Below are positions 1-17,156 of a DNA stretch of 49,091 nt, in pieces (position 1 is the stretch's first letter; each line of letters opens with the position of its first letter). The notes beneath the pieces are model-generated. The model searched no databases, was not told the DNA's origin, and saw only the letters and a program-made list of their open reading frames with translations. The position numbers and the translations under genes are program-made. Source of the DNA: an uncultured Gammaproteobacteria bacterium. Lineage in GTDB: Bacteria > Pseudomonadota > Gammaproteobacteria > Pseudomonadales > UBA7434. The stretch lies in assembly GCA_963968645.1 (NCBI GenBank), contig CAXAHI010000003.1:1-49091 (forward strand), read 5' to 3'.

Positions 1-13
1 ATCAATAGAGCCA

Positions 14-1486
14 ATGAGTCTTACCGAGATAGCGGCTCAAGAGCATCAACTTTCGTTATTCGATGATGCACCAATCCCCAGCCTCGATATTAATAATCTT
101 AATGCTAGGCCGCGCTCAGTTAAATCAAAATCTTTAACGCCAGTCAGTCGTCCACTGCGTATTTGTATTGCTGGTTATCGCAGTGCGCCTTTTGGTGGTG
201 GCCAAGGTATTTATATTAAATATCTGAGTAAAGCCTTAGTCGATGCTGGTCATCAAGTAGATGTCATTTCTGGCCAGCCATATCCAGAAGTAGATCCTCG
301 CGTTAATCTTATTAAACTGCCAGGGTTGGATTTATTCAATAATGGCTTGCGCTCGTTACGTGCGCATCATCTTACTTCGCTCACCAATATTATAGAGTGG
401 ACGGGTAAGCTCACTGGTGGATTTTCTGAGCCTTATTGTTTTAGTCGCCGCCTCTATAAATACCTAAAACCGCGTCGTGCCGATTACGACATTATTCATG
501 ATAACCAATGTCTCGGCTGGGGCATGTTAAAGCTACAGAAAAAAGGCTTTAATTTATTGACCACCATTCATCATCCCATTACCAGTGATTTAGAAATTGC
601 ATTGAATGCGAGTGATGACAAATGGCAGCGTTTTTTTATTCGCCGCTGGTATGCTTTTTTAGGCATGCAAAAGCGTGTCGCTTCACAGTTGGATCATGTA
701 GTAACGGTGTCGAAGCGATCGACCGCAGATATATCGAAAGATTTTTCTATAGATGAAAAAAATATTCATTTAATTTATAACGGTATAGATACTGACGTAT
801 TTAAACCTATGCGAGGGGTGAAGCGTGATCCTTGGCAGATTATGGCTATCGCTTCTGCTGATCAGCCGTTAAAGGGTTTGCGCTATTTATTATTGGCGTT
901 ATCACAATTGGTGTCAAAGTATCCGCAATTAAATTTATTATTGGTCAGTAAGCCGCAAGAAAAAGGCGAGACTGAGCAATTAATTAAAAGTCTGAATTTG
1001 GCAAAGCATATTCAGTTTGTCCATGGCGTGAGTACTGAAGCTCTAGTTAAGCACTATGCCGAGTCGAGTATTGCGATTGTTCCGTCGGTGTATGAAGGCT
1101 TTGGTTTGCCAGCAGGTGAGGCAATGGCTTGTGCCGTACCTTTGGTTTCAACAAACGGTGGAGCCTTACCTGAAGTAGTGGGTGATGCAGGCGTTACGGT
1201 TGCAACTAAAAATCCAACGGCTATGGCTAATGCTATAGAAGAGTTGCTGTTAAATGCAGATGCTAGAAAACGCTATGGCAAGCTAGGTAGAAAGCGCATA
1301 GAGAAAAACTTTTCTTGGGCTTTGGCCGCAAAAGAAATGACTGCGCTATATTATAAAATAATTGATGATAGGCAGCCTAACGATAACTTAAATAGTGTTA
1401 AATCGTATAGCGACAAATCGTCTAGCGATGAATTATTTGAGACATCTGATTTCCTTGAGGATGAGGCTGCCAATGCTCACCATTAA
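14..1486 (+). CDS. GT4 family glycosyltransferase, ManT-like (putative alpha-1,4-mannosyltransferase)
   Basis: GT-B/GT4 motifs: N-terminal GGQGIY, NGID, C-terminal PSVYEGFGLPAGEAMAC (E-X7-E), GGALPEVVGD. ManT-like call is from cluster context and recalled similarity. Confidence 0.85.
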   Translation: MSLTEIAAQEHQLSLFDDAPIPSLDINNLNARPRSVKSKSLTPVSRPLRICIAGYRSAPFGGGQGIYIKYLSKALVDAGHQVDVISGQPYPEVDPRVNLIKLPGLDLFNNGLRSLRAHHLTSLTNIIEWTGKLTGGFSEPYCFSRRLYKYLKPRRADYDIIHDNQCLGWGMLKLQKKGFNLLTTIHHPITSDLEIALNASDDKWQRFFIRRWYAFLGMQKRVASQLDHVVTVSKRSTADISKDFSIDEKNIHLIYNGIDTDVFKPMRGVKRDPWQIMAIASADQPLKGLRYLLLALSQLVSKYPQLNLLLVSKPQEKGETEQLIKSLNLAKHIQFVHGVSTEALVKHYAESSIAIVPSVYEGFGLPAGEAMACAVPLVSTNGGALPEVVGDAGVTVATKNPTAMANAIEELLLNADARKRYGKLGRKRIEKNFSWALAAKEMTALYYKIIDDRQPNDNLNSVKSYSDKSSSDELFETSDFLEDEAANAHH

Positions 1487-2213
1487 TTTTAAGCATATGG
1501 GTTTAGCAAAAGGCGATAAAGTCTTAGACCTGGGTTGCGGTGAAGGCCGGCATGTTATTTCTGCTTATATGGAATTCGATATTCAAGCAGTAGGTGTAGA
1601 TCTTAGTTTTGATGATTTAAAGATAAGTGCAGAAAGGTTTACGCATTTTTCTGATCCTGACAATGATAATAAAAGTTTTTCGTTGTCAGCATCTAATGCG
1701 CTGTCACTGCCTTTTGACAATAATACTTTTGATGCGGTTATCTGCTCAGAAGTGCTCGAGCATATTCCTGATTATCAATCGGTATTAGCTGAAATTACGC
1801 GCGTGTTAAAGCCTAAAGGTGTATTTGCGACCAGTGTGCCGCGTGCATGGCCGGAAATAATTTGTTGGGCGCTAAGCCGTGCTTACCATGAAGTTGAAGG
1901 TGGTCATATTCGTATCTTTAATTCGCGAACGTTACGAAAAAATATTCAACAACAAGGCTATGCTTACTATGCTGGCCATTGGGCCCATGCTTTGCATGTG
2001 CCGTTTTGGTGGTTGAAATGTTTATTTTGGGATAAACAGGAAACGTCTAAGTTAATTGCTGCTTATCATAAGTTGTTAGTATGGGATTTAATGAAAAAAC
2101 CTTGGTTAACACAAACTATAGAAAAGTTACTGAATCCTTTAATGGGTAAAAGTGTCGTTATGTATTTTCAAAAAAATGCATCTGCTGCAGGCGATAGTGG
2201 AGTAGCTCAATAA
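1473..2213 (+). CDS. Class I SAM-dependent methyltransferase (Methyltransf_11-like; putative MMP 3-O-methyltransferase)
   Basis: VLDLGCGEGRH motif I, LPF..FDAVICSEVLEHI, RVLKPKG. Start moved from ORF-track 1395 to in-frame ATG 1473 (GAGG at 1463-1466; MLTINF...). Confidence 0.85.
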   Translation: MLTINFKHMGLAKGDKVLDLGCGEGRHVISAYMEFDIQAVGVDLSFDDLKISAERFTHFSDPDNDNKSFSLSASNALSLPFDNNTFDAVICSEVLEHIPDYQSVLAEITRVLKPKGVFATSVPRAWPEIICWALSRAYHEVEGGHIRIFNSRTLRKNIQQQGYAYYAGHWAHALHVPFWWLKCLFWDKQETSKLIAAYHKLLVWDLMKKPWLTQTIEKLLNPLMGKSVVMYFQKNASAAGDSGVAQ

Positions 2214-3253
2214 TGAGTAAATTGCATTTATCGAAAGGTCAGTATCCCGAAGCGTTTTTTTTATCGACAGTTAATTTTATTCGACAGGTGCAACAACCCA
2301 GTGGTGCTATTCCATGGTTTGAAGGCGGGCATTGTGATCCTTGGGACCATGTTGAGTCGGCTATGGGCTTAAGTATTCATGGCGATTTTGTTAATGCTGA
2401 GCGAGCTTATCAATGGTTGGCCGATCAGCAGTTGCCCGATGGTAGCTGGTGGGCAGCTTACAAAAATGATGTAGTTGATACGAAAGATCGTCGTGAAACC
2501 AATTTTGTCGGCTATGTTGCTACGGGTGTGTGGCATCATTATTTGATTAGTCAGAATAATGATTTTATACAGCGATTATGGCCAGTGGTGGATGCGGCAA
2601 TTAATTTCGTTATTGCCCAGCAGCAGGAAGAGGGAGATATCAATTGGGCCGTGGATACTAACAGCGAGCCAATGTGTGACGCATTAATTACTGGGTGTAG
2701 CTCTATTTATAAAAGCTTGGAATGCGCTCACAATATTTCGGTGATCGTTAACCAGCCTCGACCAGAATGGTTGCTGGCTCGAGAAAAACTAGGTGACGCC
2801 TTACGTAATAAGCCACAACGCTTTGATCGAACCTGGGAGAGTAAATCCCGATTTTCGATGGACTGGTTTTATCCAGTATTAACCGGCGTTATTCCTAAAG
2901 CGCAAGCCTCTGCACATTTAATGGCACGTTGGGATGAGTTTGTTGAAACTAACTTGGGTTGTCGCTGTGTGGTTGAAGAGCCGTGGGTAACGGTTGCAGA
3001 GTCTTGTGAATTAACAATGGCATTGCTAGCCGCAGGTGATCATGTTCGTGCGACTGAGCTATATAGCTGGCTGCATCAATGGCAGTTAGACGATGGCTCC
3101 TATTGGACGGGTTATCAGTTTGTACAAGATGTTTTATGGCCAGATGAAAAACCCACTTGGACAGCGGGCGCTATTCTTTTAGCCGCTGATGCCTTAGCTG
3201 AACATACGCCTGCAGCTAAACTGTTCACCTCAGTAACACTGTTAGAGTCATAG
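2213..3253 (+). CDS. (alpha/alpha)6-barrel protein of the family usually annotated 'prenyltransferase'; MmpH-like glycoside hydrolase candidate
   Basis: Motifs GAIPWF.GGH.DPWDHVE.AM.L, Q.PDGSW, RFSMDWFYPVL, PWVTVAESCEL, WPDEKPTWTAGA; no signal peptide; TAATG stop/start overlap with upstream gene. Confidence 0.7.
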   Translation: MSKLHLSKGQYPEAFFLSTVNFIRQVQQPSGAIPWFEGGHCDPWDHVESAMGLSIHGDFVNAERAYQWLADQQLPDGSWWAAYKNDVVDTKDRRETNFVGYVATGVWHHYLISQNNDFIQRLWPVVDAAINFVIAQQQEEGDINWAVDTNSEPMCDALITGCSSIYKSLECAHNISVIVNQPRPEWLLAREKLGDALRNKPQRFDRTWESKSRFSMDWFYPVLTGVIPKAQASAHLMARWDEFVETNLGCRCVVEEPWVTVAESCELTMALLAAGDHVRATELYSWLHQWQLDDGSYWTGYQFVQDVLWPDEKPTWTAGAILLAADALAEHTPAAKLFTSVTLLES

Positions 3254-3267
3254 TCTGCAAAAGCGGC

Positions 3268-3894
3268 TTAGACGCGCTTAAATAAGCCGAGAGTGTTTAC
3301 TGTTGGTAGTTCTTCGAATAAACCTGATGCCTTAGCGAGTTTCCATATAGTGTAGGGTGCTTGACCACCATCGTTGGGGTCAGGAAAAATATCGTGAATC
3401 GCTAATATCCCGCCAACTACAATATGATTAGCCCAGGCTCGGTAATCAATCATTGCTGCTTCCATACTATGGCCGCCATCAATAAAAACCATACCTAATG
3501 GAATTGACCAGTGGCGAGAGGCAAGTTGTGATGAGGCGACAATTGGTATAACGGTTTCTTCAAGTTCGGCATTTCGGAGTGTTCTACGAAAAGTTCTAAA
3601 ACTATCCATTAATTGAGCTTGCGAATCAAATAGCTCACTATCGTGATACTCCTCACCCAATTGATGCTCTTCAGAGCCGCGGTGATGATCTACGGCATAA
3701 ACAATATTGTTATTTTGTTTGGCGGCAGTGCCGAGAAAAACGGTGGATTTTCCACAGTAGCTTCCTACTTCTAAAGTAGGCCCAAGAGCGGCAGTGTGGC
3801 TTGCGGCCTCAAATAATGCTTGGCCTTCGTCGTCGGCAAGAAATCCTTTAACCGTATCTAAATTAATGGGTAAATCCGCTGTTTTAAATGTCAT
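3268..3894 (-). CDS. Class I SAM-dependent methyltransferase (Methyltransf_24), MeT1-like mannoside 1-O-methyltransferase
   Basis: GFL..DEG, EVGSYCGKST, VDHHRGSEEHQ.G.EYHD, FIDGGH, IHDIFPDPNDGGQAP closely match my recollection of mycobacterial MeT1. Confidence 0.85.
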   Translation of the reverse strand: MTFKTADLPINLDTVKGFLADDEGQALFEAASHTAALGPTLEVGSYCGKSTVFLGTAAKQNNNIVYAVDHHRGSEEHQLGEEYHDSELFDSQAQLMDSFRTFRRTLRNAELEETVIPIVASSQLASRHWSIPLGMVFIDGGHSMEAAMIDYRAWANHIVVGGILAIHDIFPDPNDGGQAPYTIWKLAKASGLFEELPTVNTLGLFKRV

Positions 3895-4331: not shown

Positions 4332-6134
4332 TTGAATTATATCAATAGGTTAAAGGTGTTAATTATCGCTATGTGTCTTCGCTCTACTTTCGCTCGTTTT
4401 TTTGTTTCGACAATTTTTATGATGCTAATGAGTGTTGTTGTTCCAGCGTCATATGCGCAGAATAACAATCAGGCTAATCCCTTACTCCTCTCTTTTAATG
4501 TAAACGGCTTTTCATTATTAGCCGAGTTGCATCAAAATACTCAACTACTTGAAAAAATCAGTACACCTGTAGCCAGTGTCGAACAGCTTCATTATAAAGG
4601 TCAGTTATCAGGGTATCCGAATAGCGGTGTGAGAGTCTCTTACAGTAATGGCCACTGGCAAGGTGTTTTATTATTCGAGGACGAGTTATATATAATTGAT
4701 GCCAACCATGATTCAATCGAAAATGGTTCCGAAGGATTACATACTTACCAATCTGCTGATGACGAGAAATTAAAAACTTGCGCGTCAGGTGTTATTAAAA
4801 ACCCAATTTTTTCTAACGAAAATGCACAATCACTGCCGCTCTCTACATTCGAGAATCAAGATGGTCAGCTGTCAGCGAGTAACCTGCCAGCGAGTAATAT
4901 TGTTACTAGTAATTTCACTACCGCCTCTGCAAGCCTCTCCGATGTATGTGCTAATCAAATTAATGGTGTTTGCCTGTTGCCGGAAATTGAGCTTGCTTAT
5001 GATTTAAGTTATCAAAACTTACCCGGATCAGAGACCCCGATGCAGCGGGCTTTGCGTGAATTAAATGAAATGGAATTATTCTTTCAAAATGGTTTGGGTT
5101 ATCAATTTAGTCGAGTCAGTTTAACTATGTTGAATTCGACACAGGATGCTTTAATTGGCAATAGTGATGATCCTAATGATTTACTCGATCGGCTACGGAT
5201 ATTACGTGGCTCTAATCAGTTAGGTTTCTTAGAACAATCGAGATCTATTTTCCATTTAGTCACAGGTCGTGATTTTTCGGGGTCCGATGGCGATGTTATT
5301 GGCATCGCTTATTTAGGGCAGGTTTGTGAAAGCTTTGGCTTAAATACCGGCTTAACTGATGCTGGTGATACATCATTAGTAAGCTTAGTGATGGCGCATG
5401 AGATAGGCCATAACTTCGGTGCAGATCATGATTCACTAGAAACGAATGGCTGTCCCGATAATCGAAACGTAATGTCAGCCAGTCTAGGTTTTCAGGCATC
5501 GAGTTTTACAGGTTTTTCTTCTTGTTCAATTGAAGCTATTAATCAAACTGTCGCCGATAATTTATCGGGCTTATGTTTTAACTTCCCTATCGATGTTGGC
5601 TTAACGGCGAGTATCGATAACCCTGTTAGTCCTGATCGCATCACGCCATTTGATTTGGTTTATAGCGTTAATACTGCGGACGGCTACATTGCTATTAGCT
5701 CGGTCAATGTTAATGGCGTAATAAGTAATAGTGATGCTGGACAGTTTGTAAGTGCCAGCATTCAGAACGGGGTATGTACTTCAACGTCGAGTACCTATAG
5801 CTGTACGGTCAACAATCCGTTAAGTAATTTTTTATTAACGATTACCAGTGTTGTTAATGAAAATGCAACTGAGCTCGTAATGCAGCATTCGGTTAGTACC
5901 ATTACAGCAGAGACAACGGATGTTATATCTTCAAATAATATACTTAATGTAACGCTAAACTCTTTTGGTGAGCCTAACCCGACAGATGATCCTGTTGATG
6001 AAGCGCCTGAACCTGACTCTAATCAAACATTAACGTCTAATGGTTCGAGTGGCGGCGGGGGTAGTATGCATCCATTGGGTTTGATGCTGCTTGCGGGTTT
6101 TTATATATTTCGACGGCTGAGACGAAAAGATTAA
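4332..6134 (+). CDS. Secreted M12B (reprolysin-like) zinc metallopeptidase with Ig-like domain and GlyGly-CTERM anchor
   Basis: HEIGHNFGADH metzincin motif, Met-turn NVMS, IGIAYLGQVC, signal peptide ending ASYA, C-terminal SSGGGGSM-hydrophobic-RRLRRK. True start may be a later ATG. Confidence 0.85.
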   Translation: MNYINRLKVLIIAMCLRSTFARFFVSTIFMMLMSVVVPASYAQNNNQANPLLLSFNVNGFSLLAELHQNTQLLEKISTPVASVEQLHYKGQLSGYPNSGVRVSYSNGHWQGVLLFEDELYIIDANHDSIENGSEGLHTYQSADDEKLKTCASGVIKNPIFSNENAQSLPLSTFENQDGQLSASNLPASNIVTSNFTTASASLSDVCANQINGVCLLPEIELAYDLSYQNLPGSETPMQRALRELNEMELFFQNGLGYQFSRVSLTMLNSTQDALIGNSDDPNDLLDRLRILRGSNQLGFLEQSRSIFHLVTGRDFSGSDGDVIGIAYLGQVCESFGLNTGLTDAGDTSLVSLVMAHEIGHNFGADHDSLETNGCPDNRNVMSASLGFQASSFTGFSSCSIEAINQTVADNLSGLCFNFPIDVGLTASIDNPVSPDRITPFDLVYSVNTADGYIAISSVNVNGVISNSDAGQFVSASIQNGVCTSTSSTYSCTVNNPLSNFLLTITSVVNENATELVMQHSVSTITAETTDVISSNNILNVTLNSFGEPNPTDDPVDEAPEPDSNQTLTSNGSSGGGGSMHPLGLMLLAGFYIFRRLRRKD

Positions 6135-6140
6135 ATCGTT

Positions 6141-6905
6141 CTAGCTATCCTTTTGTTCGACTAGTCGACTCATGAATAAACCTAATTCAAAGAGTAGCCA
6201 AGCAGGTATCGCTAGCAATGACTGCGAAATAATGTCTGGCGGCGTGAGTAACATGCCAAAAACAAAACAAACAACCACAATATAAGGGCGCTTTTCTGCG
6301 AGTGCTTTTCTTGTTGTTACACCAGCCCTTATTAAAATAAAAGTCGCAATAGGAATTTCAAACGCTAAGCCGAATGCGAAAAATAATTTAAGAATAAAAG
6401 ATAAGTAGCTATTGATATCAGGCGTTACAGCAACTCCTATGGGTGCAATCGCTGTGAAAAAACCGAATACAATGGGAAATACAACGTAGTAAGAAAAGGC
6501 AATTCCCAAATAAAATAATAAGACGCTACTGACAAAGAGTGGAATCGCTAAACTCTTTTCATTGCTATACATGCCGGGCGCAATAAAAGACCAAAGTTGA
6601 TAAAGAATATAAGGCACGGCAATAAAAAAAGATAAAATAATAGTGAGCTTAAACGGCGCAAAGAAAGGCGAGGCAATATCTGTTGCAATCATACTCGTGC
6701 CTTCAGGCAGCAAGTCCTGAATAGGTAATGCAAAAAATGTGTAGATGTCATTAGAGAAAACCACTAAGGCTAAAAAAACCAATAGTATTGATCCGAGACT
6801 TTTGAGTAGGCAGGTACGGAGCTCGAGTAAGTGGGCAACCAGCGGTTGTTCTTTATCGCTACTGCTTGCGGCGGATTGTTCTGTTGATTTTGAAGTGATA
6901 GACAT
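6141..6905 (-). CDS. tatC: Twin-arginine translocase subunit TatC
   Basis: PLVAHLLELR, PFFAPFKL, FIAPGMY, AFEIP, TPPDIISQ; follows tatB. ATG 6905 preferred over TTG 6911. Confidence 0.97.
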   Translation of the reverse strand: MSITSKSTEQSAASSSDKEQPLVAHLLELRTCLLKSLGSILLVFLALVVFSNDIYTFFALPIQDLLPEGTSMIATDIASPFFAPFKLTIILSFFIAVPYILYQLWSFIAPGMYSNEKSLAIPLFVSSVLLFYLGIAFSYYVVFPIVFGFFTAIAPIGVAVTPDINSYLSFILKLFFAFGLAFEIPIATFILIRAGVTTRKALAEKRPYIVVVCFVFGMLLTPPDIISQSLLAIPAWLLFELGLFMSRLVEQKDS

Positions 6906-6919
6906 GCGCAAGCCGCTTT

Positions 6920-7249
6920 CTAATGTTTTTCAGATGAGGTGTCATCATCTATCGGCGTATGGATAGATTGATGGGTATCATGGATAGATTGTTCAAACTC
7001 GTTAGCTGTTTGCTTTAGCTGCTCTATAGGTTCGCCAAGTTGATGCAACACGTTTTCATTATGAAGTTGCTCACGAATTTCATCGGCATTAATTTCACGC
7101 TCTATATCAGCTTTGATACTGTTAAAGCTGCGTTTAATTTTACCTAACCACAAAGCGATAGTCTTAACCGTTGAGGGTAATCGCTCAGGGCCTAATACAA
7201 TCAATGCAATAACGCTGATCAGTAAAATTTCTTGTATGCCAATATCCAT
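6920..7249 (-). CDS. tatB: Twin-arginine translocase subunit TatB
   Basis: [22 protein letters not shown]; between tatA and tatC. Confidence 0.96.
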
Positions 7250-7263
7250 AAAGTAATATCGAG

Positions 7264-7467
7264 TTATTGATCTTTCTTGTCAGCAGCCGAGTCGCTTTGT
7301 TCATCCAGTTCTTTTGCTGGCTCATCATCAGCCATGGATTTTTTAAAGCCCTTGATAGCTCCGCCAAGATCGCCACCAATATTTTTAAGGCGTTTAGTGC
7401 CAAAAATCATAATCACGATTGCTAATACAATCAATAATTGCCAAATACTAATTCCGCCTAAGCCCAT
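7264..7467 (-). CDS. tatA: Twin-arginine translocase subunit TatA
   Basis: [34 protein letters not shown]; AGGAG SD upstream. Confidence 0.97.
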
Positions 7468-7500
7468 GAGATGCTCCTATTGATGTTTGATCAATTACGT

Positions 7501-7854
7501 TTATTTGCGTGCTGCTTTTTCTTCAAGACCTGAGACACCAATACGGCGGCCCAGTTCTTCTATAACATCATCAGCGTTGCTGTCTAAATGAGAAAGCATG
7601 ACTAATGTATGAAACCATAAATCTGCAGTTTCACTGATGAGAGCTGTTCTTTCTGTGTCGGTGTTCGCATTAGCCGATTGACGCGCAATATCAAAATCTT
7701 TTGCCGCAATAATGACTTCTGTCGATTCTTCACCCACTTTTTCAAGAATTTTATTGATCCCTTTTTTATGCAGCTCGGCGACATATGAGGCATCTGACTC
7801 AGCAGTTTTACGCTGCTCAAGTAAGGCGGTAAGTTGTTTTAATATGTCGGCCAT
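7501..7854 (-). CDS. hisE: Phosphoribosyl-ATP diphosphatase
   Basis: [34 protein letters not shown]. Confidence 0.96.
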
Positions 7855-7907
7855 ATTGTTGCTCTTTTAAAAGATTCTTTGTTAAATAGATTGATCGAGT
7901 GATTAGC

Positions 7908-8303
7908 CTAATAAATATCTTCTGGATTTTTTAAGGGTGCTTCAACACTAACCCATCCATCAGATGCAGAATACTGTTGGTACATGCAGCTCTCGCGGCC
8001 AGTATGACAAGCAATGCCACCAATTTGTTCGACCATTAATAGTAGCGTGTCGCCATCACAATCTAGTCGGACATCTTTAACCTTTTGTATATGGCCAGAG
8101 GTTTCGCCTTTGTGCCATAGCCGTTGGCGTGATCGAGACCAATAAACGGCTTCGCTTTTTTCTAGCGTAGCGATCAATGCGTCGCTATTCATCCACGCCA
8201 TCATCAGCACTTTTTTGCTGTTAGCATCTTGGGCAATAGCCGGAACGAGCCCCTGACTATTCCACTTAATGGCGTCTATTAATGCATTATTCAATTCTGT
8301 CAT
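7908..8303 (-). CDS. hisI: Phosphoribosyl-AMP cyclohydrolase
   Basis: [40 protein letters not shown]. Confidence 0.97.
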
Positions 8304-8347
8304 GGCGCTATGGTTTCTAATCAGTGTGAAAGAATAAGTTAATGGCG

Positions 8348-9940
8348 TTAGTTTAACGCTAAATAGGCTGTCGCTGAAAGTAGAGATAATAGCGCGATTA
8401 CAGTGACAACGGTAAGGAAAGTGTGCTGTCGATCTAAAGTGCGCTCTAGGCGATCAATCCGGCTTTGCAGCTGTGATGAAGCGCCATTAGAGGCTGCTGA
8501 ACCAGAGGTGGCTGTGCCATTAAATTGATGAAGCTGCCTCAGTAAAAGGTCAGGCAGCGCTGGCAATGCTTCTAGCAAGGCCGGCGATTGATTTTTCAGC
8601 TCACTCAATAGTCGTTTGGGTGAGTAACGCTCGGCCATCCAGTTTTCAAGAAACGGGTGAGCGGTTTGCCATAAGTCTAAATCGGGATAGAGTTGTCTGC
8701 CTAGCCCTTCAATATTCAGCAAAGTTTTTTGTAATAACACTAATGAGGGCTGAACTTCCATGCCGAATCGACGAGCTACTTGGAAGAGATAAATCAGTAA
8801 AGTGCCAAATGAAATTTCTGACAACGGCTTTTCAAAAATAGGTTCGCAAGCACTTCGAATCATACCTTCAAAAGATTGCACGTTAGTACCGGGTGGAACC
8901 CAACCCGATTCAATATGCAGCCTTGCTACTTGGCTATAGTCTCTATTAAACACGGCAAGTAAATTGCGAGCTAGATAATAGCGATCAAAATCAGACAGCG
9001 AGCCCATAATGGCGCAATCGATTCCAATATAGCGTGGCGTTGCTGGCGTTGTTGCGTCGACAAAAATATTGCCAGGATGCATATCGGCATGAAAGAAGTT
9101 GTGTTCAAATACTTGCGTAAAAAATATTTCCACACCGCTTTCGGCTAATGATTTTAAGTTTGTATTTTTCTTATTGAGTGTTTCAATATCCGAAACAGGC
9201 ACGCCATAAATGCGCTCCATTACCATAATATTGGGGCCGCTTAATTTCCAGATAACGGCAGGAATAAAAAGTAGGCTGCGTAATTTATCGCTTTGCTCAA
9301 AGTTACGTTTTAATTGCGAGCAGTTGGCAGCTTCACGCTTTAAATCCAGCTCATCAAAAATCGTATGCTCATAATCACTCACGACTTCAGTTAGACGCAT
9401 ACGTCGACCATCTAATGAGAATCGTTCAACCATGCGCGCTATTAAAAAGAGTAATTGAATATCTTTGTGGATGATTTTTTCAATACCGGGTCGTATTACT
9501 TTTACGACAACATCAAGCCCGTCATGCATTTTAGCTGCGTGCACTTGTGCTACCGAGGCTGAGGCAAGAGGCACTTCGCTAAATTCAGCAAAGGCTTGAG
9601 TAACTGGCTGTCCTAAAGCGGCTTCAATAATGGCGACTGATTTTGAGCTATCAAAAGGAGGCACTTGATCTTGCAGTAAGGCAAGTTCGTCGGCAATATC
9701 AGGCGGCAGTAAATCCCGTCGTGTTGATAGCAATTGACCGAATTTAACAAAGACGGGGCCGAGCTCTTGAAGCGCTGTACGTAAACGTACGCCGCGATCA
9801 TCATCGGCGCTATAAAAAGGCGCAATCACTTTCATCAGTAATTTGGTTAGTAGCTGTTGTCGAGATTGAGGGATAAAAGTATCGAGACGATATTTCATCG
9901 AAACACGTAAAATAGTGAATAAGCGCATCAATTGCTTCAT
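8348..9940 (-). CDS. ubiB: Ubiquinone biosynthesis kinase-like protein UbiB
   Basis: [37 protein letters not shown]; ubiE-ubiJ-ubiB order. Confidence 0.97.
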
Positions 9941-14909: not shown

Positions 14910-17156
14910 TTAGATGACATCTTGCGGGTCGATATCAATACTCCAGCGCAAGCCCGTTGGCTTTTTGCTTTGATCCAACCATTGAATAAGCTGTTTTACT
15001 GCCCCATGCAGCGATTTACGTTGTTCGGATTTAATCATTAACTGAGCGCGATGGCGGCCCGCACGTTTTTCCATAACAGCCGCTAGAGGGCCAATAAGCT
15101 GACAGCCGCTCTGATTCACCATGTTGGTTTGTTGCATAGCGAGTGAGTTCAAAAATTGCATGGCGTGTTCGGGCTTGTGGCTATCGGCGCGTATTAATGC
15201 AATGTGCGCATAGGGCGGTAACGAGCGTAGTGAGCGCTCATTTAGCATGGTTTCGACAATGCCTTGATAGCTTTCAGTTTGCCATATTTGTAGTAATGGA
15301 TGCTCAGGCAGGTGAGTTTGAATGAGCACTTTACCGGCATGTCCTGTTCGGCCTGCGCGGCCAGCCACTTGCGTGAGCAGTTGTACGGTTTTTTCTGGCC
15401 CGCGAAAATCGGGATTATAGAGGCCTTGGTCGATATCAAGCACGATCACTAAGTTGAGCGCAGGAAAGTGATGGCCTTTAGCCAGCATTTGCGTACCCAC
15501 TAAGATGGCCGGTTCGCCGCGGTTGATAATATCAACTTGCTCACCCATGGCCTGCTTGCCCTGCGTGGTATCTCTATCAATTCGAATAACGGGAAAGCGC
15601 GGGAACAAAGCGCTTAAAGCATCGGCACTTCGCTGCGTGCCTTGGCCAACATTCAGTAAGCGAGATGATTGGCAGCGCGCACAGGCCGATGGCACTTGAG
15701 CACGATAGTCACAGTGATGGCAGCGGAGTTCACGCGGACGACTGTGCAGCGTTAATCGCGCATCGCAGTTATCACATTGAGCATGCCAGCCACAGTCATG
15801 ACACATTAATAGTGGCGCAAACCCACGACGGTTAACGAAAACCATCGCTTGCTGCCCGCTAGAGAGCGTTTCGCCAATAGCGGCAATGGCGTTATCGCTC
15901 AGCCCCTCATGCAATTCTTTACAGCGTATATCTAATATTTCGATACTGGGTGGGCTGGCGCTGCCGGCGCGCTCTTTAAGAGTCGCATGCAGATATTTTT
16001 TTGTATGTACGTTAAACAGCGTCTCTAGAGAAGGAGTGGCAGAGCCGAGAACCACAGGAATGCTTTTAGTGCGCGCTCGAATAATGGCGATATCACGCGC
16101 CGAGTAACGAAGGCTATCTTGCTGTTTATAGGAGCCATCATGTTCTTCATCAATAATAATGAGGCCGGCATTGGCCATGGGCGTAAACACAGCCGAGCGT
16201 GTGCCGATAATAATGCGAGCCACGCCATCTTTGGCTGCCGTCCATGCCGCTAGGCGCTCTCGGTCGGTGAGGCCTGAGTGAAAAATAGCGATAGGGACAT
16301 TAAAGCGATTAACGAAGCGGTTAATGGTTTGCGGGGTAAGGCCAATTTCTGGCACTAACACCAACACTTGTTGGTCATTCGCTAAGACTTTTTCGATGGC
16401 GCGCAAATAGACTTCGGTTTTACCGCTGCCGGTAATACCTTCAAGTAATACAGTGTCAAAGCTGCCGAGTCGATCGGCTATTAAAGCGCCAGCAGACACT
16501 TGTTCATCATTAAGCGTTGGTGGTTGGTCTTTGGCTTGGCCGAGCAATAGACTCTGGCAGTCGGCAGGGTAGTAGGCTTGCTCTGACGGGGTTACTAGGT
16601 CTTTCTTTGCAAGCTCTAAGGCTGACGCGCGGCTATGTCCTAGCTCTTTGAGTGAGCTTTCAGTCGTCAGCGTATCGGCGGTGGCTAGCTCTGCAGCACG
16701 AAGAAAGTCTAGCAGCGCGGCTTGTTTGGGGGCTCGCGATAAAGCGTTATCGGGTAAGCCGAGGCCGTGATGGCTGATTTTCCAACAACATTGCTTGTAG
16801 GCATCGATGCTGCCGCCTTTGCGCAGCTGATTAGGCAGTAAGCTTAATAAGGTGTCACCAAATGGGTGGTGGTAATAACTGCTCATCCATTCTGCTAATG
16901 AGAGTAAATCCTCGTTGACTACGGCTACAGTATCGAGCTGTTGGCGAATTGCCTTCAGTTTATTAATCGGAATCGATGAATCTTGGCAGTGCCCTATCAC
17001 GATGCCCGTCATATTACGGCGACCAAAAGGGACTTCTACGCGGGTGCCCACCCTATAATCGGTCGCATTTTGGCCTTCGGCGGGTAAATAGTCGAAATGG
17101 TGCCTTACGGGCGAGGCAATAACCACTTGGACAAGTTTTGACGGGCCGGCACTCAT
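14910..17156 (-). CDS. priA: Primosomal protein N' (replication restart helicase)
   Basis: GITGSGKTEVY, DEEHD, SATPS, two Cys-pair zinc clusters, GTQMLAKGHHF, W.IDIDP. Confidence 0.98.
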   Translation of the reverse strand: MSAGPSKLVQVVIASPVRHHFDYLPAEGQNATDYRVGTRVEVPFGRRNMTGIVIGHCQDSSIPINKLKAIRQQLDTVAVVNEDLLSLAEWMSSYYHHPFGDTLLSLLPNQLRKGGSIDAYKQCCWKISHHGLGLPDNALSRAPKQAALLDFLRAAELATADTLTTESSLKELGHSRASALELAKKDLVTPSEQAYYPADCQSLLLGQAKDQPPTLNDEQVSAGALIADRLGSFDTVLLEGITGSGKTEVYLRAIEKVLANDQQVLVLVPEIGLTPQTINRFVNRFNVPIAIFHSGLTDRERLAAWTAAKDGVARIIIGTRSAVFTPMANAGLIIIDEEHDGSYKQQDSLRYSARDIAIIRARTKSIPVVLGSATPSLETLFNVHTKKYLHATLKERAGSASPPSIEILDIRCKELHEGLSDNAIAAIGETLSSGQQAMVFVNRRGFAPLLMCHDCGWHAQCDNCDARLTLHSRPRELRCHHCDYRAQVPSACARCQSSRLLNVGQGTQRSADALSALFPRFPVIRIDRDTTQGKQAMGEQVDIINRGEPAILVGTQMLAKGHHFPALNLVIVLDIDQGLYNPDFRGPEKTVQLLTQVAGRAGRTGHAGKVLIQTHLPEHPLLQIWQTESYQGIVETMLNERSLRSLPPYAHIALIRADSHKPEHAMQFLNSLAMQQTNMVNQSGCQLIGPLAAVMEKRAGRHRAQLMIKSEQRKSLHGAVKQLIQWLDQSKKPTGLRWSIDIDPQDVI

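Follow-up and report, generated by a model that had tools for sequence, protein, structure and literature searches.

Four genes lie at the start of the window, the whole stretch of 49,091 nucleotides analyzed here, and resemble the set that makes methylmannose polysaccharide (MMP) in mycobacteria. All four open reading frames are present in the ORF list and together occupy positions 2-3894, approximately 3.9 kb (Table 1). The preliminary description had reported a tightly coupled operon of a GT4 glycosyltransferase, a methyltransferase and a hydrolase-like gene, followed by a convergent second methyltransferase, and the reading frames, their overlaps and the intergenic spacing confirm this layout. 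The stop codon of the first methyltransferase and the start codon of the hydrolase have one base in common (TAATG at 2211-2215), and the convergent stops of the hydrolase (3253) and the MeT1-like gene (3268) are separated by 14 nt. Within the window the cluster is flanked by tatABC, hisIE, ubiB and a protease-like gene.

Table 1. Positions and predicted identities of the four MMP-like genes in the window.
Feature	Position	Strand	Basis
ManT-like GT4 (GT-B) alpha-mannosyltransferase gene	2..1486	+	ORF, Pfam GT4 domains, PDB 7qsg match
pMeT3-like class I SAM-dependent methyltransferase gene	1473..2213 (listed ORF 1395..2213)	+	ORF, Pfam, reciprocal best hit
MmpH-like (alpha/alpha)6-barrel endo-alpha-mannosidase (MMP hydrolase) gene, predicted	2213..3253	+	ORF, PDB 7qsj match
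MeT1-like Methyltransf_24 methyltransferase gene	3268..3894	-	ORF, PDB 6g7d match

The starts of the first two genes need revision. The cluster had been placed at 14-3894, and while the four genes are indeed found there, the GT4 start at 14 is probably wrong. Position 14 is the first ATG of a frame that ends at a TAA at 1484-1486, and this frame is open from base 2, base 1 of the window being the first base of its contig (C3). Because the frame runs open to the contig edge and the ORF of a 77% identical homologue (locus L026) reaches approximately 25 codons further upstream, with similarity extending into window bases 2-13, the contig edge probably removes the 5' part of the GT4 gene, whose true start is probably other than ATG 14. 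For the second gene the listed GTG at 1395 is probably too early. The most likely start is the ATG at 1473, which has a GAGG upstream at 1463-1466 and makes the gene overlap the end of the GT4 gene by 14 nt; ATG 1461 and GTG 1395 are the alternatives. ATG 1473 is favored because alignments to homologues begin only at residue ~27.

As the preliminary description had held, none of the four proteins has an obvious signal peptide. No hydrophobic stretch resembling a transmembrane or signal segment was found in any of them using a crude test, the highest Kyte-Doolittle mean over 19 residues being at most 1.14, and the four proteins look soluble and cytoplasmic.

MMP in mycobacteria is a cytoplasmic, fatty-acid-binding polymer of methylated mannose that is made and recycled by four genes. 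It consists of approximately 11-14 alpha-(1->4)-linked 3-O-methylmannose units, carries a 1-O-methyl group at its reducing end, and binds long acyl chains. PMC9883506 places ManT, pMeT3, MmpH and MeT1 in one cluster, MHAS_04402-04405 in Mycolicibacterium hassiacum and MSMEG_6481-6484 in M. smegmatis. The four genes of the window had been proposed to map one-to-one onto this set, and PDB matches, reciprocal searches, and gene order and orientation all bear this out. The only PDB matches with very low E-values for the ManT-, MmpH- and MeT1-like proteins are the M. hassiacum MMP enzymes, and these structures (7qsg, 7qsj and 6g7d) in turn map to adjacent genes of a mycobacterial locus, L120, with E-values of 2.5e-191, 2.1e-114 and 7.7e-233, respectively. 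Comparison of the genome that contains the window (G000) with the mycobacterial genome of L120 establishes orthology, in that all four genes are reciprocal best hits with the MMP genes of L120, with a wide gap to the next matches. For ManT the forward search returned 2.3e-94 against 5.0e-22 for the next hit; in the reverse direction all four L120 genes returned those of the window, the MmpH and MeT1 searches giving single matches. For MmpH the match was single in the forward direction too. Synteny is equally established. The order and orientation ManT > methyltransferase > MmpH followed by a convergent MeT1 is the same in the window and in 6/6 actinomycete loci examined, MeT1 being adjacent and convergent in five of these and 4 kb away in the sixth.

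The cluster also corresponds to that of Streptomyces, for which PMC9883506 describes an acetylated MMP (AMMP) made from a homologous cluster. ManT, the methyltransferase and MmpH are colinear in all 18 Streptomyces and Embleya loci, with a MeT1 homologue on the opposite strand, but in Streptomyces MeT1 lies 2-9 kb off rather than abutting the operon as in the window. Identities between the window and Streptomyces proteins are 39-42% for ManT, 47-50% for the methyltransferase, 46-51% for MmpH and 46-54% for MeT1. A further comparison is the other polymethylated polysaccharide of mycobacteria, the 6-O-methylglucose lipopolysaccharide (MGLP). It is proposed to act in like manner, sequestering acyl chains as a helical methylated glycan in the cytoplasm; MGLP, however, is built by other enzymes from another sugar, and no match between the four window proteins and MGLP enzymes appeared in the searches made.

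Functional residues were compared with those named for the M. hassiacum enzymes. The ManT-like protein matches PDB 7qsg with an E-value of 5.5e-97 over residues 47-450, approximately the catalytic core of the 490-residue reading. According to Maranha 2023 (PMC9883506), G15, H142, K240, E313 and E321 of ManT were tested by mutagenesis, G314, F315 and L317 belong to the mannosyl loop, and D293, which was not mutated, is proposed from PimA as the residue contacting N2 of the guanine in GDP-mannose. Eight of these nine residues are kept in the window, so that the GT-B signature and the mutagenesis-tested residues are present: G62, H186, K287, E361, G362, F363, L365 and E369 correspond to ManT G15, H142, K240, E313, G314, F315, L317 and E321. 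The mannosyl-recognition loop E-G-F-x-L is among those kept, and its E, G and F, together with E321, are invariant in 93/93 homologues. The exception is D293, the putative guanine contact, which is T341 in the window; this column holds Thr in 37/54 gammaproteobacterial homologues and Asp in 23/24 actinobacterial ones. Donor specificity could therefore differ, and T341 lowers confidence in the predicted donor nucleotide while leaving the homology untouched. The window protein matches 73/73 family columns with at least 95% conservation. It further differs from mycobacterial ManT at both ends, with an extension at the N-terminus and an acidic tail at the C-terminus (residues 450-490), the tail being common to close relatives only.

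The MmpH-like protein matches PDB 7qsj, 'Methylmannose polysaccharide hydrolase (MmpH)', with an E-value of 1.7e-93, the next match being at 0.013. Maranha 2023 (PMC9883506) names E262 as the catalytic base, D47 and D50 as candidates for the acid, and W49, N101, F102, T163, M215, Y219 and E265 as subsite residues. All ten are identical in the window, where the HMMER alignment to 7qsj equates D42, W44, D45, N97 and F98 with MmpH D47, W49, D50, N101 and F102, and T160, M216, Y220, E263 and E266 with T163, M215, Y219, E262 and E265; the subsite residues, reported to hold mannose or methylmannose, are thus kept. Across 98 homologues, each of eight residues is present in 97-98 sequences, D50 is seen in 87 and F102 in 85, and the alphaproteobacterial homologues have Asn instead of D50 in 8/8 cases. 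All 63 conserved columns of the family are matched. GH15 glucoamylase/glucodextranase and the GH125 exo-alpha-1,6-mannosidase (clan GH-L) also combine an (alpha/alpha)6 barrel with a conserved Glu general base, as in the MmpH-like protein. Assignment to either family was rejected, since the sequence similarity is marginal and the protein belongs with MmpH, which is endo-acting and specific for MMP. MmpH itself is only 8-13% identical to its GH15 and GH125 relatives, as stated in Maranha 2023 (PMC9883506). An NCBIfam match of the window protein to 'oligosaccharide amylase' was weak (48.5 bits against a cut-off of 820.7).

The two methyltransferases differ in how closely they can be tied to a solved structure. 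Conservation of the MeT1-like protein was judged from its match to 6g7d (E-value 3.3e-57 over residues 12-205) and from the family alignment, in which it matches 39/39 columns with at least 95% conservation across 74 homologues. Its sole other PDB match is a designed repeat protein (2.1e-06). The metal-, SAM- and substrate-binding residues of MeT1 were reportedly defined in a 2019 structure paper, and Ripoll-Rozada et al. 2019 reportedly concerns the mycobacterial cluster as well. For the pMeT3-like protein, which has Pfam Methyltransf_23/31/11/25 domains, a sequence search of the PDB found no specific solved relative; the nearest solved folds to its structural model (pLDDT 90.6) are the sugar O-methyltransferases RebM and AtmM. 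It is 46% identical to the L120 gene between ManT and MmpH (E-value 3.7e-68, next best 7.8e-10), and 47-50% identical to the gene in the same position in Streptomyces. Its G-x-G-x-G region contains D19, G21, C22, G23 and G25, the alignment (A2) has 46 invariant columns, and 51/51 columns that are at least 95% conserved are matched. The protein thus has the class I SAM-dependent fold and keeps the C-terminal half that is conserved in its family. We regard the second gene as a putative mannose 3-O-methyltransferase; the mycobacterial enzyme, too, is described in the literature only as 'putative' (pMeT3), its 3-O regiospecificity included.

The preliminary description knew of such a glycan from Actinobacteria only. 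Its account needs amending in that the gene set is no rarity confined to this bacterium. MmpH homologues occur in 76/201 sampled genomes of the window's order, and co-occurrence with MeT1 is nearly complete, MeT1 being found in 75 of the 76 MmpH-positive genomes and in none of the 125 MmpH-negative ones. The synteny survey suggested there recovered the same arrangement in Halieaceae, Spongiibacteraceae, Cellvibrionaceae, Microbulbifer and SAR86, as well as in Parvibaculales and Syntrophales. Judged from these homologues, the MMP-like set is common in the order and present in other phyla. Among 80 loci from genome contigs, ManT, the methyltransferase and MmpH are colinear in 75 and MeT1 lies within the flank in 59, the counts for a set of 12 loci from the window's own order being 12 and 9; a MeT1 that was not adjacent was found elsewhere in the genome in all five genomes checked. 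Across 98 loci the conserved genes are these four only, and no fifth gene, such as an acyltransferase, travels with them. Our literature search found no paper on MMP genes outside Actinobacteria, and the set is apparently undescribed in these marine and hydrocarbon-degrading groups. Wax-ester synthase (WS/DGAT) occurs in 49/76 MmpH-positive and 38/125 MmpH-negative genomes, counts that are uncorrected for kinship, and was not found in the window's genome; its link to the cluster is weak. Marine RNA libraries from two studies yielded contigs, at least 95% alike, that match parts of all four genes; this evidence is weak and does not prove transcription.

Every characterized system comes from Actinobacteria, and the module is compact, with flanks that vary between lineages, as might be expected had it been acquired recently from a high-GC actinobacterium, perhaps as non-functional baggage. 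Within the window's genus, one complete genome (G017) lacks the cluster and another (G192) has MmpH in three frame pieces. Composition and phylogeny make such an origin scarcely credible. The GC content of the cluster is 0.425, compared to 0.432 for the rest of the window, 0.427 for the genome, and 0.67-0.70 for actinobacterial loci, and GC3 is 0.30-0.38 in the four cluster genes and 0.34-0.38 in four other window genes, so that the composition is native to the genome. In an unrooted concatenated tree (FastTree), Actinobacteria and Proteobacteria form separate clades (support values of 100*), Streptomyces and mycobacterial-type loci falling together in the former, and the window groups with genomes of its own genus next to Spongiibacteraceae, the topology following taxonomy. 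Nesting inside an actinobacterial genus and atypical composition were both looked for and not found, the reading frames are uninterrupted, and no conserved column has been lost. The earlier suggestion of long residence in the lineage over recent high-GC transfer is supported by GC, GC3 and the tree alike.

Considering these comparisons together, window 2-3894 is very probably an orthologous copy of the four-gene MMP module of mycobacteria and Streptomyces, the predicted product being a cytoplasmic methylated mannan. It has the same four families in the same order and orientation, the named MmpH and ManT residues bar D293, and soluble, cytoplasmic-looking proteins. The genome has a GDP-mannose pathway, with a GDP-mannose pyrophosphorylase/PMI that scores 703.9 bits in TIGR01479 (cut-off 372.95). 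By analogy with the mechanism in M. hassiacum and M. smegmatis, mannose from a nucleotide sugar, most probably GDP-mannose, would be added by the GT4 enzyme to short alpha-(1->4)-mannoside primers, while the class I methyltransferase would O-methylate the added mannoses, at position 3 in mycobacteria. The Methyltransf_24 enzyme would cap the reducing end by 1-O-methylation, as MeT1 does in mycobacteria, and the (alpha/alpha)6 hydrolase would cut mature chains internally, yielding oligomers that prime new chains in a self-recycling mode of replication. Since the four proteins look soluble, the product should be intracellular; it is probably a cytoplasmic O-methylated alpha-1,4-mannan, amphipathic and helical, that would likely sequester long acyl chains as fatty acids or acyl-CoA. 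We infer from the characterized systems which sugar is used and how it is linked, where it is methylated, how long the chains are, and that they bind lipids.

The window host is a low-GC marine gammaproteobacterium rather than a high-GC actinobacterium, and its proteins are only 40-51% identical to the mycobacterial enzymes, which leaves room for a changed linkage, methylation position or chain length. It is conceivable, if unlikely, that the orthologous module makes a product chemically unlike MMP, with a role other than binding acyl chains. Such a product might use another donor sugar or nucleotide, or carry a different methylation pattern or extra substituents, or consist of short methylated oligomannosides serving as a compatible solute. 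The substitutions at ManT D293 and, in Alphaproteobacteria, at MmpH D50 are consistent with this, as are the modest identities and the acetylated polymer attributed to the Streptomyces cluster in PMC9883506. Against it, the ManT mannosyl loop and E321 are kept, as are the MmpH subsite residues, the GDP-mannose pathway is present, and no fifth conserved gene accompanies the cluster.

GT4 enzymes and methyltransferases are also common in O-antigen and EPS loci, and the GT4 protein has NCBIfam matches to EPS and PEP-CTERM glycosyltransferases, all weak and far under cut-offs. That the four genes build or decorate a surface polysaccharide (LPS O-antigen, capsule or EPS), using methylated mannose to terminate its chains, instead of making a cytoplasmic polymer is nevertheless very improbable. 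Beside the cluster, no conserved flippase, polymerase, ABC transporter, polyprenyl-phosphate transferase or chain-length regulator was found across the 98 loci, where the four genes alone recur; the genes flanking it in the window are of other kinds, the proteins have no membrane or signal segments, and their specific relatives are enzymes of a cytoplasmic polymer.

A cytoplasmic methylated mannan in these bacteria would bear on what such polymers are for. The accepted role of MMP in mycobacteria involves FAS-I and the handling of fatty-acyl-CoA. Gammaproteobacteria use FAS-II, so this physiological role may not carry over, and the window host would be expected to lack both FAS-I and mycolic acids. 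The carrier groups include Halieaceae/OM60-type bacteria, Parvibaculales and syntrophic Syntrophales, and many of the groups are degraders of lipids, alkanes or fatty acids. We tentatively propose, as a possibility somewhat short of even, that polymethylated mannose polysaccharides are a widespread bacterial acyl-chain chaperone rather than a feature peculiar to Actinobacteria and bound up with FAS-I and the envelope of mycobacteria, with the four-gene module vertically maintained in about one third of the genomes sampled from a large order of marine Gammaproteobacteria. If this is true, the core role of the polymer would be that of a buffer, taking up free long-chain acyl-CoA or fatty acids while lipids are catabolized or at low temperature, and abundant marine bacteria would be an unrecognized source of O-methylated sugars in ocean organic matter.

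The four ORFs of the cluster lie in the first 3.9 kb of the window, itself the opening 49 kb of contig C3 in an assembly (2.55 Mb, 214 contigs) rated 98.8% complete. The preliminary description had read them as a tightly coupled operon of GT4, methyltransferase and hydrolase-like genes with a convergent second methyltransferase gene and no obvious signal peptide, and this reading holds: all four ORFs are present, and no transmembrane-like stretch was found in any of the four proteins. The ATG of gene 2 at 1473 has a GAGG 6 bases upstream, and from it gene 2 overlaps the last 14 nt of the GT4 gene; as homologues are alignable only from the residue at this ATG onwards, the GTG at 1395 is probably too early a start. 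Gene 2 and the MmpH-like gene meet in a TAATG at 2211-2215, and the convergent stops of the MmpH-like and MeT1-like genes are separated by 14 nt. Translational coupling is evident at the cluster junctions. The contig edge probably truncates the GT4 gene at its 5' end, judging from the 77% identical homologue in the related locus L026, whose ORF is about 25 codons longer upstream and whose similarity reaches window bases 2-13.

Coordinates of the cluster genes and neighbouring features in the window
Feature	Position	Strand	Basis
GT4 glycosyltransferase gene (ManT-like)	open from base 2, first ATG 14, end 1486	+	Pfam GT4 domains
Gene 2, class I SAM methyltransferase (pMeT3-like)	end 2213	+	generic class I methyltransferase Pfam domains
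MmpH-like protein, 346 aa	2213-3253	+	sub-threshold 'Prenyltrans' toroid match only in Pfam
MeT1-like protein, 208 aa	3268-3894	-	Pfam Methyltransf_24
Protein of 600 aa, zinc-metalloprotease-like HEIGHNFGADHD motif	4332-6134	+	translation
tatC, tatB, tatA, hisE, hisI, ubiB-like, directly downstream of the cluster	6141-9940	-	by look of translations

Searches against all PDB sequences linked three of the four proteins to the crystallised enzymes of Mycolicibacterium hassiacum. The GT4 protein matched ManT (7qsg) at an E-value of 5.5e-97, with the next entry at 6.9e-26; the 346-aa protein matched 7qsj, deposited as 'Methylmannose polysaccharide hydrolase (MmpH)', at 1.7e-93, with the next at 0.013; and the Methyltransf_24 protein matched MeT1 (6g7d) at 3.3e-57. 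Gene 2 returned generic methyltransferase matches only, and no NCBIfam model scored above its cut-off for any of the four proteins. To connect these entries with one another and to reach pMeT3, for which there is no structure, we sampled 301 genomes from the class holding a Streptomyces locus and excised six loci. One of these, L120 (GC 0.68), is closely related to the crystallised M. hassiacum cluster, as its proteins match 7qsj, 6g7d and 7qsg at 2.5e-191, 2.1e-114 and 7.7e-233, respectively. Its layout, ManT, methyltransferase, MmpH and a convergent MeT1, is identical to that of the window, and the other five actinomycete loci share it, with MeT1 4 kb off in one. Identities between the window and L120 are 40-41% for ManT, 45-46% for gene 2, 46% for MmpH and 50-51% for MeT1. 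When the L120 genome was searched with the window proteins, ManT found the cluster gene at 2.3e-94 (next 5.0e-22) and gene 2 at 3.7e-68 (next 7.8e-10). Conversely, the four L120 proteins recovered the four window genes from the source genome, MmpH and MeT1 as the sole matches of their queries. Reciprocal best hits thus hold for all four genes, and together with the three PDB matches and the shared gene order they bear out the proposed one-to-one mapping onto ManT, pMeT3, MmpH and MeT1.

Residue conservation was followed in HMMER alignments and in alignments of the window proteins to homologues encoded by the loci (98 for MmpH, 93 for ManT). In MmpH, E262 is described as the base and D47 or D50 as the acid, with W49, N101, F102, T163, M215, Y219 and E265 lining a subsite (Maranha et al. 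2023, PMC9883506); all 10 residues named in that account are kept in the window protein. For ManT, mutagenesis showed K240, E313 and E321 to be required, and G15, H142 and G314, F315 and L317 of the mannosyl loop are also named (PMC9883506); the window protein keeps these eight. The one tested feature in which the window differs concerns guanine reading, perhaps via L291 and D293, where donor-nucleotide specificity was inferred from the PimA analogy only (PMC9883506). The D293 position is Thr in the window and in 37 of 54 gammaproteobacterial homologues, and Asp in 23 of 24 actinobacterial ones, a substitution that may bear on donor-nucleotide specificity. Wherever 95% or more of the other sequences agree in a column, the window agrees with them (ManT 73/73, gene 2 51/51, MmpH 63/63, MeT1 39/39). 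A structure model of gene 2 from a 16-row alignment (pLDDT 90.6) has the sugar O-methyltransferases RebM (E 1.2e-16) and AtmM (E 4.8e-15) as its nearest folds (TM 0.64). This result fits a sugar O-methyltransferase, with the caveat that class I methyltransferases are all similar.

Two further observations concern these proteins. The ManT-like protein carries an N-terminal extension (window 14-151, residues 1-46) and an acidic Ser/Asp/Glu-rich C-terminal tail (1364-1486, residues 451-490) that are alignable only in the closest relatives, L015 and L026 (query 1-490); homologues from other families and Actinobacteria align over about 45-450 only. In all eight alphaproteobacterial MmpH homologues (loci L064, L067, L069 and L076-L080) the D50 position is Asn and D47 is retained, and N is also the consensus in a wider 42-row profile; the Asn would favour D47 as the general acid.

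The module is widely distributed. Of the 8000 candidates scored in a word-indexed search, 4253 were MmpH-like proteins at E <= 1e-10. The top 120 all show identities of 67% or more; their labels are 'prenyltransferase' or 'hypothetical', and those with a named source come from Litorivivens, Spongiibacter(aceae), Oceanicoccus, Halioglobus, Halieaceae, Seongchinamella, Bermanella and 'Pseudomonadales bacterium'. The sole Pfam match of the hydrolase, 'Prenyltrans', is sub-threshold (17 bits against 26.5); it accounts for the public mis-annotation, and we rejected it as a function. An exhaustive search of 50%-identity representatives returned 1629 MmpH matches at E <= 0.001, of which 264 reached E <= 1e-30. 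MmpH matches at E <= 1e-20 occur in 76 of 201 genomes sampled from the window's order (36 of 111 genera); a class-wide sample had matches in only 9 of 301 genomes, the source genome included, and the actinomycete class sample in 88 of 301, including one unpublished genome (G233) that enters no other result. Scanning one genome per species with the 42-row MmpH profile yielded at least 600 matched stretches, 598 of them confirmed. The best 80 of these at least 598 loci come from Halieaceae, Halioglobus, Haliea, Luminiphilus, Congregibacter, Spongiibacteraceae, Zhongshania, Cellvibrionaceae, Pseudomaricurvus, Microbulbifer, SAR86 and Ca. Azotimanducaceae; from Alphaproteobacteria (Parvibaculum, Parvibaculales, Rhodobiaceae); from Thermodesulfobacteriota (Smithella, Syntrophaceae, Desulfatitalea); and from the actinobacterial Streptomyces and Embleya. 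Cultured holders among the 80 include Spongiibacter marinus DSM 17750, Zhongshania aliphaticivorans, Microbulbifer agarilyticus and Pseudomaricurvus hydrocarbonicus. The set is thus no rarity of this one bacterium, being common in the window's order and present in other phyla.

Gene order is shared by most loci: 75 of the best 80, and 12 of 12 from the window's own order, keep ManT, gene 2 and MmpH colinear. In four of the five exceptions the locus is truncated at a contig end. The fifth, L097 (Desulfatitalea sp. BRH_c12, 7001-7945), has an MmpH homologue of 49% identity with no ManT, gene-2 or MeT1 homologue in its full 7-kb flanks; it is a stand-alone hydrolase, perhaps with a scavenging role. 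In 59 of the best 80 and 9 of the 12 own-order loci the fetched flank contains an opposite-strand MeT1 homologue, usually abutting MmpH in Proteobacteria and 2-7 kb away in Streptomyces (about 9 kb downstream in Streptomyces stoeckheimensis). Where it was missing from the flank, it was located elsewhere in the genome in all five genomes checked. MeT1 was found in 75 of the 201 order-sample genomes, all among the 76 MmpH-positive ones, and in none of the MmpH-negative genomes; the sole MmpH-positive genome without it, G199, consists of 570 contigs at 90% completeness. When all 98 loci were queried with the ORFs of the window and of two close loci, no fifth conserved gene emerged, some recurring 'ORFs' in the neighbour table being antisense shadows of the four. 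As only these four recur, the unit is exactly the four-gene module. Of the 98 loci, only 4, each of them gammaproteobacterial, also have tatC as a neighbour, so the flanks are unconserved beyond near kin.

Elsewhere in the window, the 600-aa protein has an N-terminal hydrophobic leader and a C-terminal tail (GGGGS, a hydrophobic stretch and RRLRRKD) that looks like a GlyGly-CTERM sorting signal; its only NCBIfam match, to the SVAGG-family GlyGly-CTERM model, is sub-threshold (33.9 bits against a cut-off of 150). G+C rises to 0.50-0.52 at 15-17 kb, within a 748-aa ORF (14910-17156, minus strand). Rfam at gathering thresholds gave no family anywhere in window 1-49091.

The cluster does not stand out in composition. 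Its GC is 0.425 against 0.427 for the genome, in line with the described AT-richness equal to the flanks; the GC3 of its genes (0.30-0.38) is similar to that of other genes, and the actinomycete loci have a GC of 0.67-0.70. In an unrooted FastTree phylogeny of concatenated ManT, gene 2 and MmpH (91 rows; seven loci in which any of the three was not present at full length were left out), the 24 actinobacterial rows form a starred clade whose sister is the four Thermodesulfobacteriota (100*). The proteobacterial side, also starred, divides into a clade of Alphaproteobacteria (100*) and a group of Gammaproteobacteria (support 86). The window groups with two same-genus genomes and a 'Pseudomonadales bacterium' SAG (100*), then beside Spongiibacteraceae. 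The separate starred clades rule out recent transfer from Actinobacteria, and with the native GC and GC3 they uphold the earlier view of long residence over a recent high-GC donor. Since the tree is unrooted, no donor can be named; the module appears to be anciently resident in Gram-negative marine and syntrophic bacteria.

Within the genus its history is uneven. G017, a 100% complete genome in one contig, has no MmpH or MeT1 match, so the module was gained or lost inside the genus. In G192 (C2:730017-731056) MmpH lies in three consecutive pieces (query 1-62, 59-123 and 120-346; 85-90% identity), implying two frameshifts and hence a pseudogene or assembly indels; the adjacent MeT1 is intact. 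The same-genus locus L025 (G117:C26) is only 48-59% identical to the window in ManT, gene 2 and MmpH and 70% in MeT1, and groups with the uncultured Cellvibrionales locus L048 (100*), outside the window's clade; its cluster may be a replacement by within-order transfer. Apart from these same-genus cases, the gene-2 homologue of L073 (CP170489.1, 'MAG: bacterium') at 6258-6961 matches as two overlapping segments (query 25-222 and 216-258), which points to a frameshift.

The reading of the four genes as an MMP-type set is thus confirmed as an observation and supported as an interpretation by orthology, residues, synteny and co-occurrence. We consider it likely that they form a functional module making a cytoplasmic methylated mannan. 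The analyses establish the module's orthology, residue conservation, co-inheritance and cytoplasmic character; we infer the sugar, linkage, methyl positions, chain length and lipid-binding role by analogy. With the mycobacterial mechanism as template (PMC9883506), the GT4 enzyme would extend a mannoside primer, gene 2 would methylate newly added units, the Methyltransf_24 enzyme would cap the reducing end, and the hydrolase would cut mature chains into primers. The genome has the capacity to make GDP-mannose (TIGR01479, 703.9 bits). Many of the named holders (Zhongshania aliphaticivorans, Pseudomaricurvus hydrocarbonicus, Parvibaculum, Smithella, Syntrophaceae, SAR86) break down lipids, alkanes or fatty acids, a lifestyle that would suit an acyl-chain buffer. 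The link of MMP to growth at 15 °C (PMC9883506) would likewise suit marine bacteria. Contigs at least 95% alike from marine RNA libraries X1-X4 (two studies) contain short pieces of each of the four genes, at search shares of words of 0.10-0.15; because such libraries can contain DNA, they are a hint of expression and no proof of transcription, strand or level. The uncovered parts carry no weight, and we draw no conclusion about habitat or strain from these contigs.

An association with wax-ester/TAG synthase (PF03007) was weighed as support for a specific role. The domain occurs in 49 of 76 MmpH-positive and 38 of 125 MmpH-negative order-sample genomes, an odds ratio of 4.2 uncorrected for kinship. 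The association is weak, several families hold just one of the two genes, and the source genome has no PF03007 match; we rejected it as support.

For fifty years, work on methylmannose polysaccharide (MMP) has treated it as a molecule of mycobacteria (and Streptomyces). The survey accompanying the definition of its biosynthesis covered actinobacterial genomes only, and the word 'proteobacteria' does not occur in the main text (PMC9883506). In the literature searched, we found neither the polysaccharide nor its enzymes linked to marine bacteria or to Proteobacteria, though the supplements of that paper (Fig. S7, 150 MmpH homologues; Table S1) or other journals may mention one; the one text found to co-mention 'methylmannose' and 'Gammaproteobacteria' is, judging by title and abstract, about a fermentation starter. 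The kind of system is already known, and what is new is its occurrence in new phyla. The finding corrects the annotation of MmpH homologues labelled 'prenyltransferase' or 'hypothetical', in a set of four genes that no NCBIfam model recognises. The holders offer genetically and physiologically simpler, non-pathogenic organisms for testing the function of polymethylated polysaccharides, and a complete, conserved module in Gram-negatives uncouples the function of the polymer from FAS-I, mycolic acids and the mycobacterial envelope.
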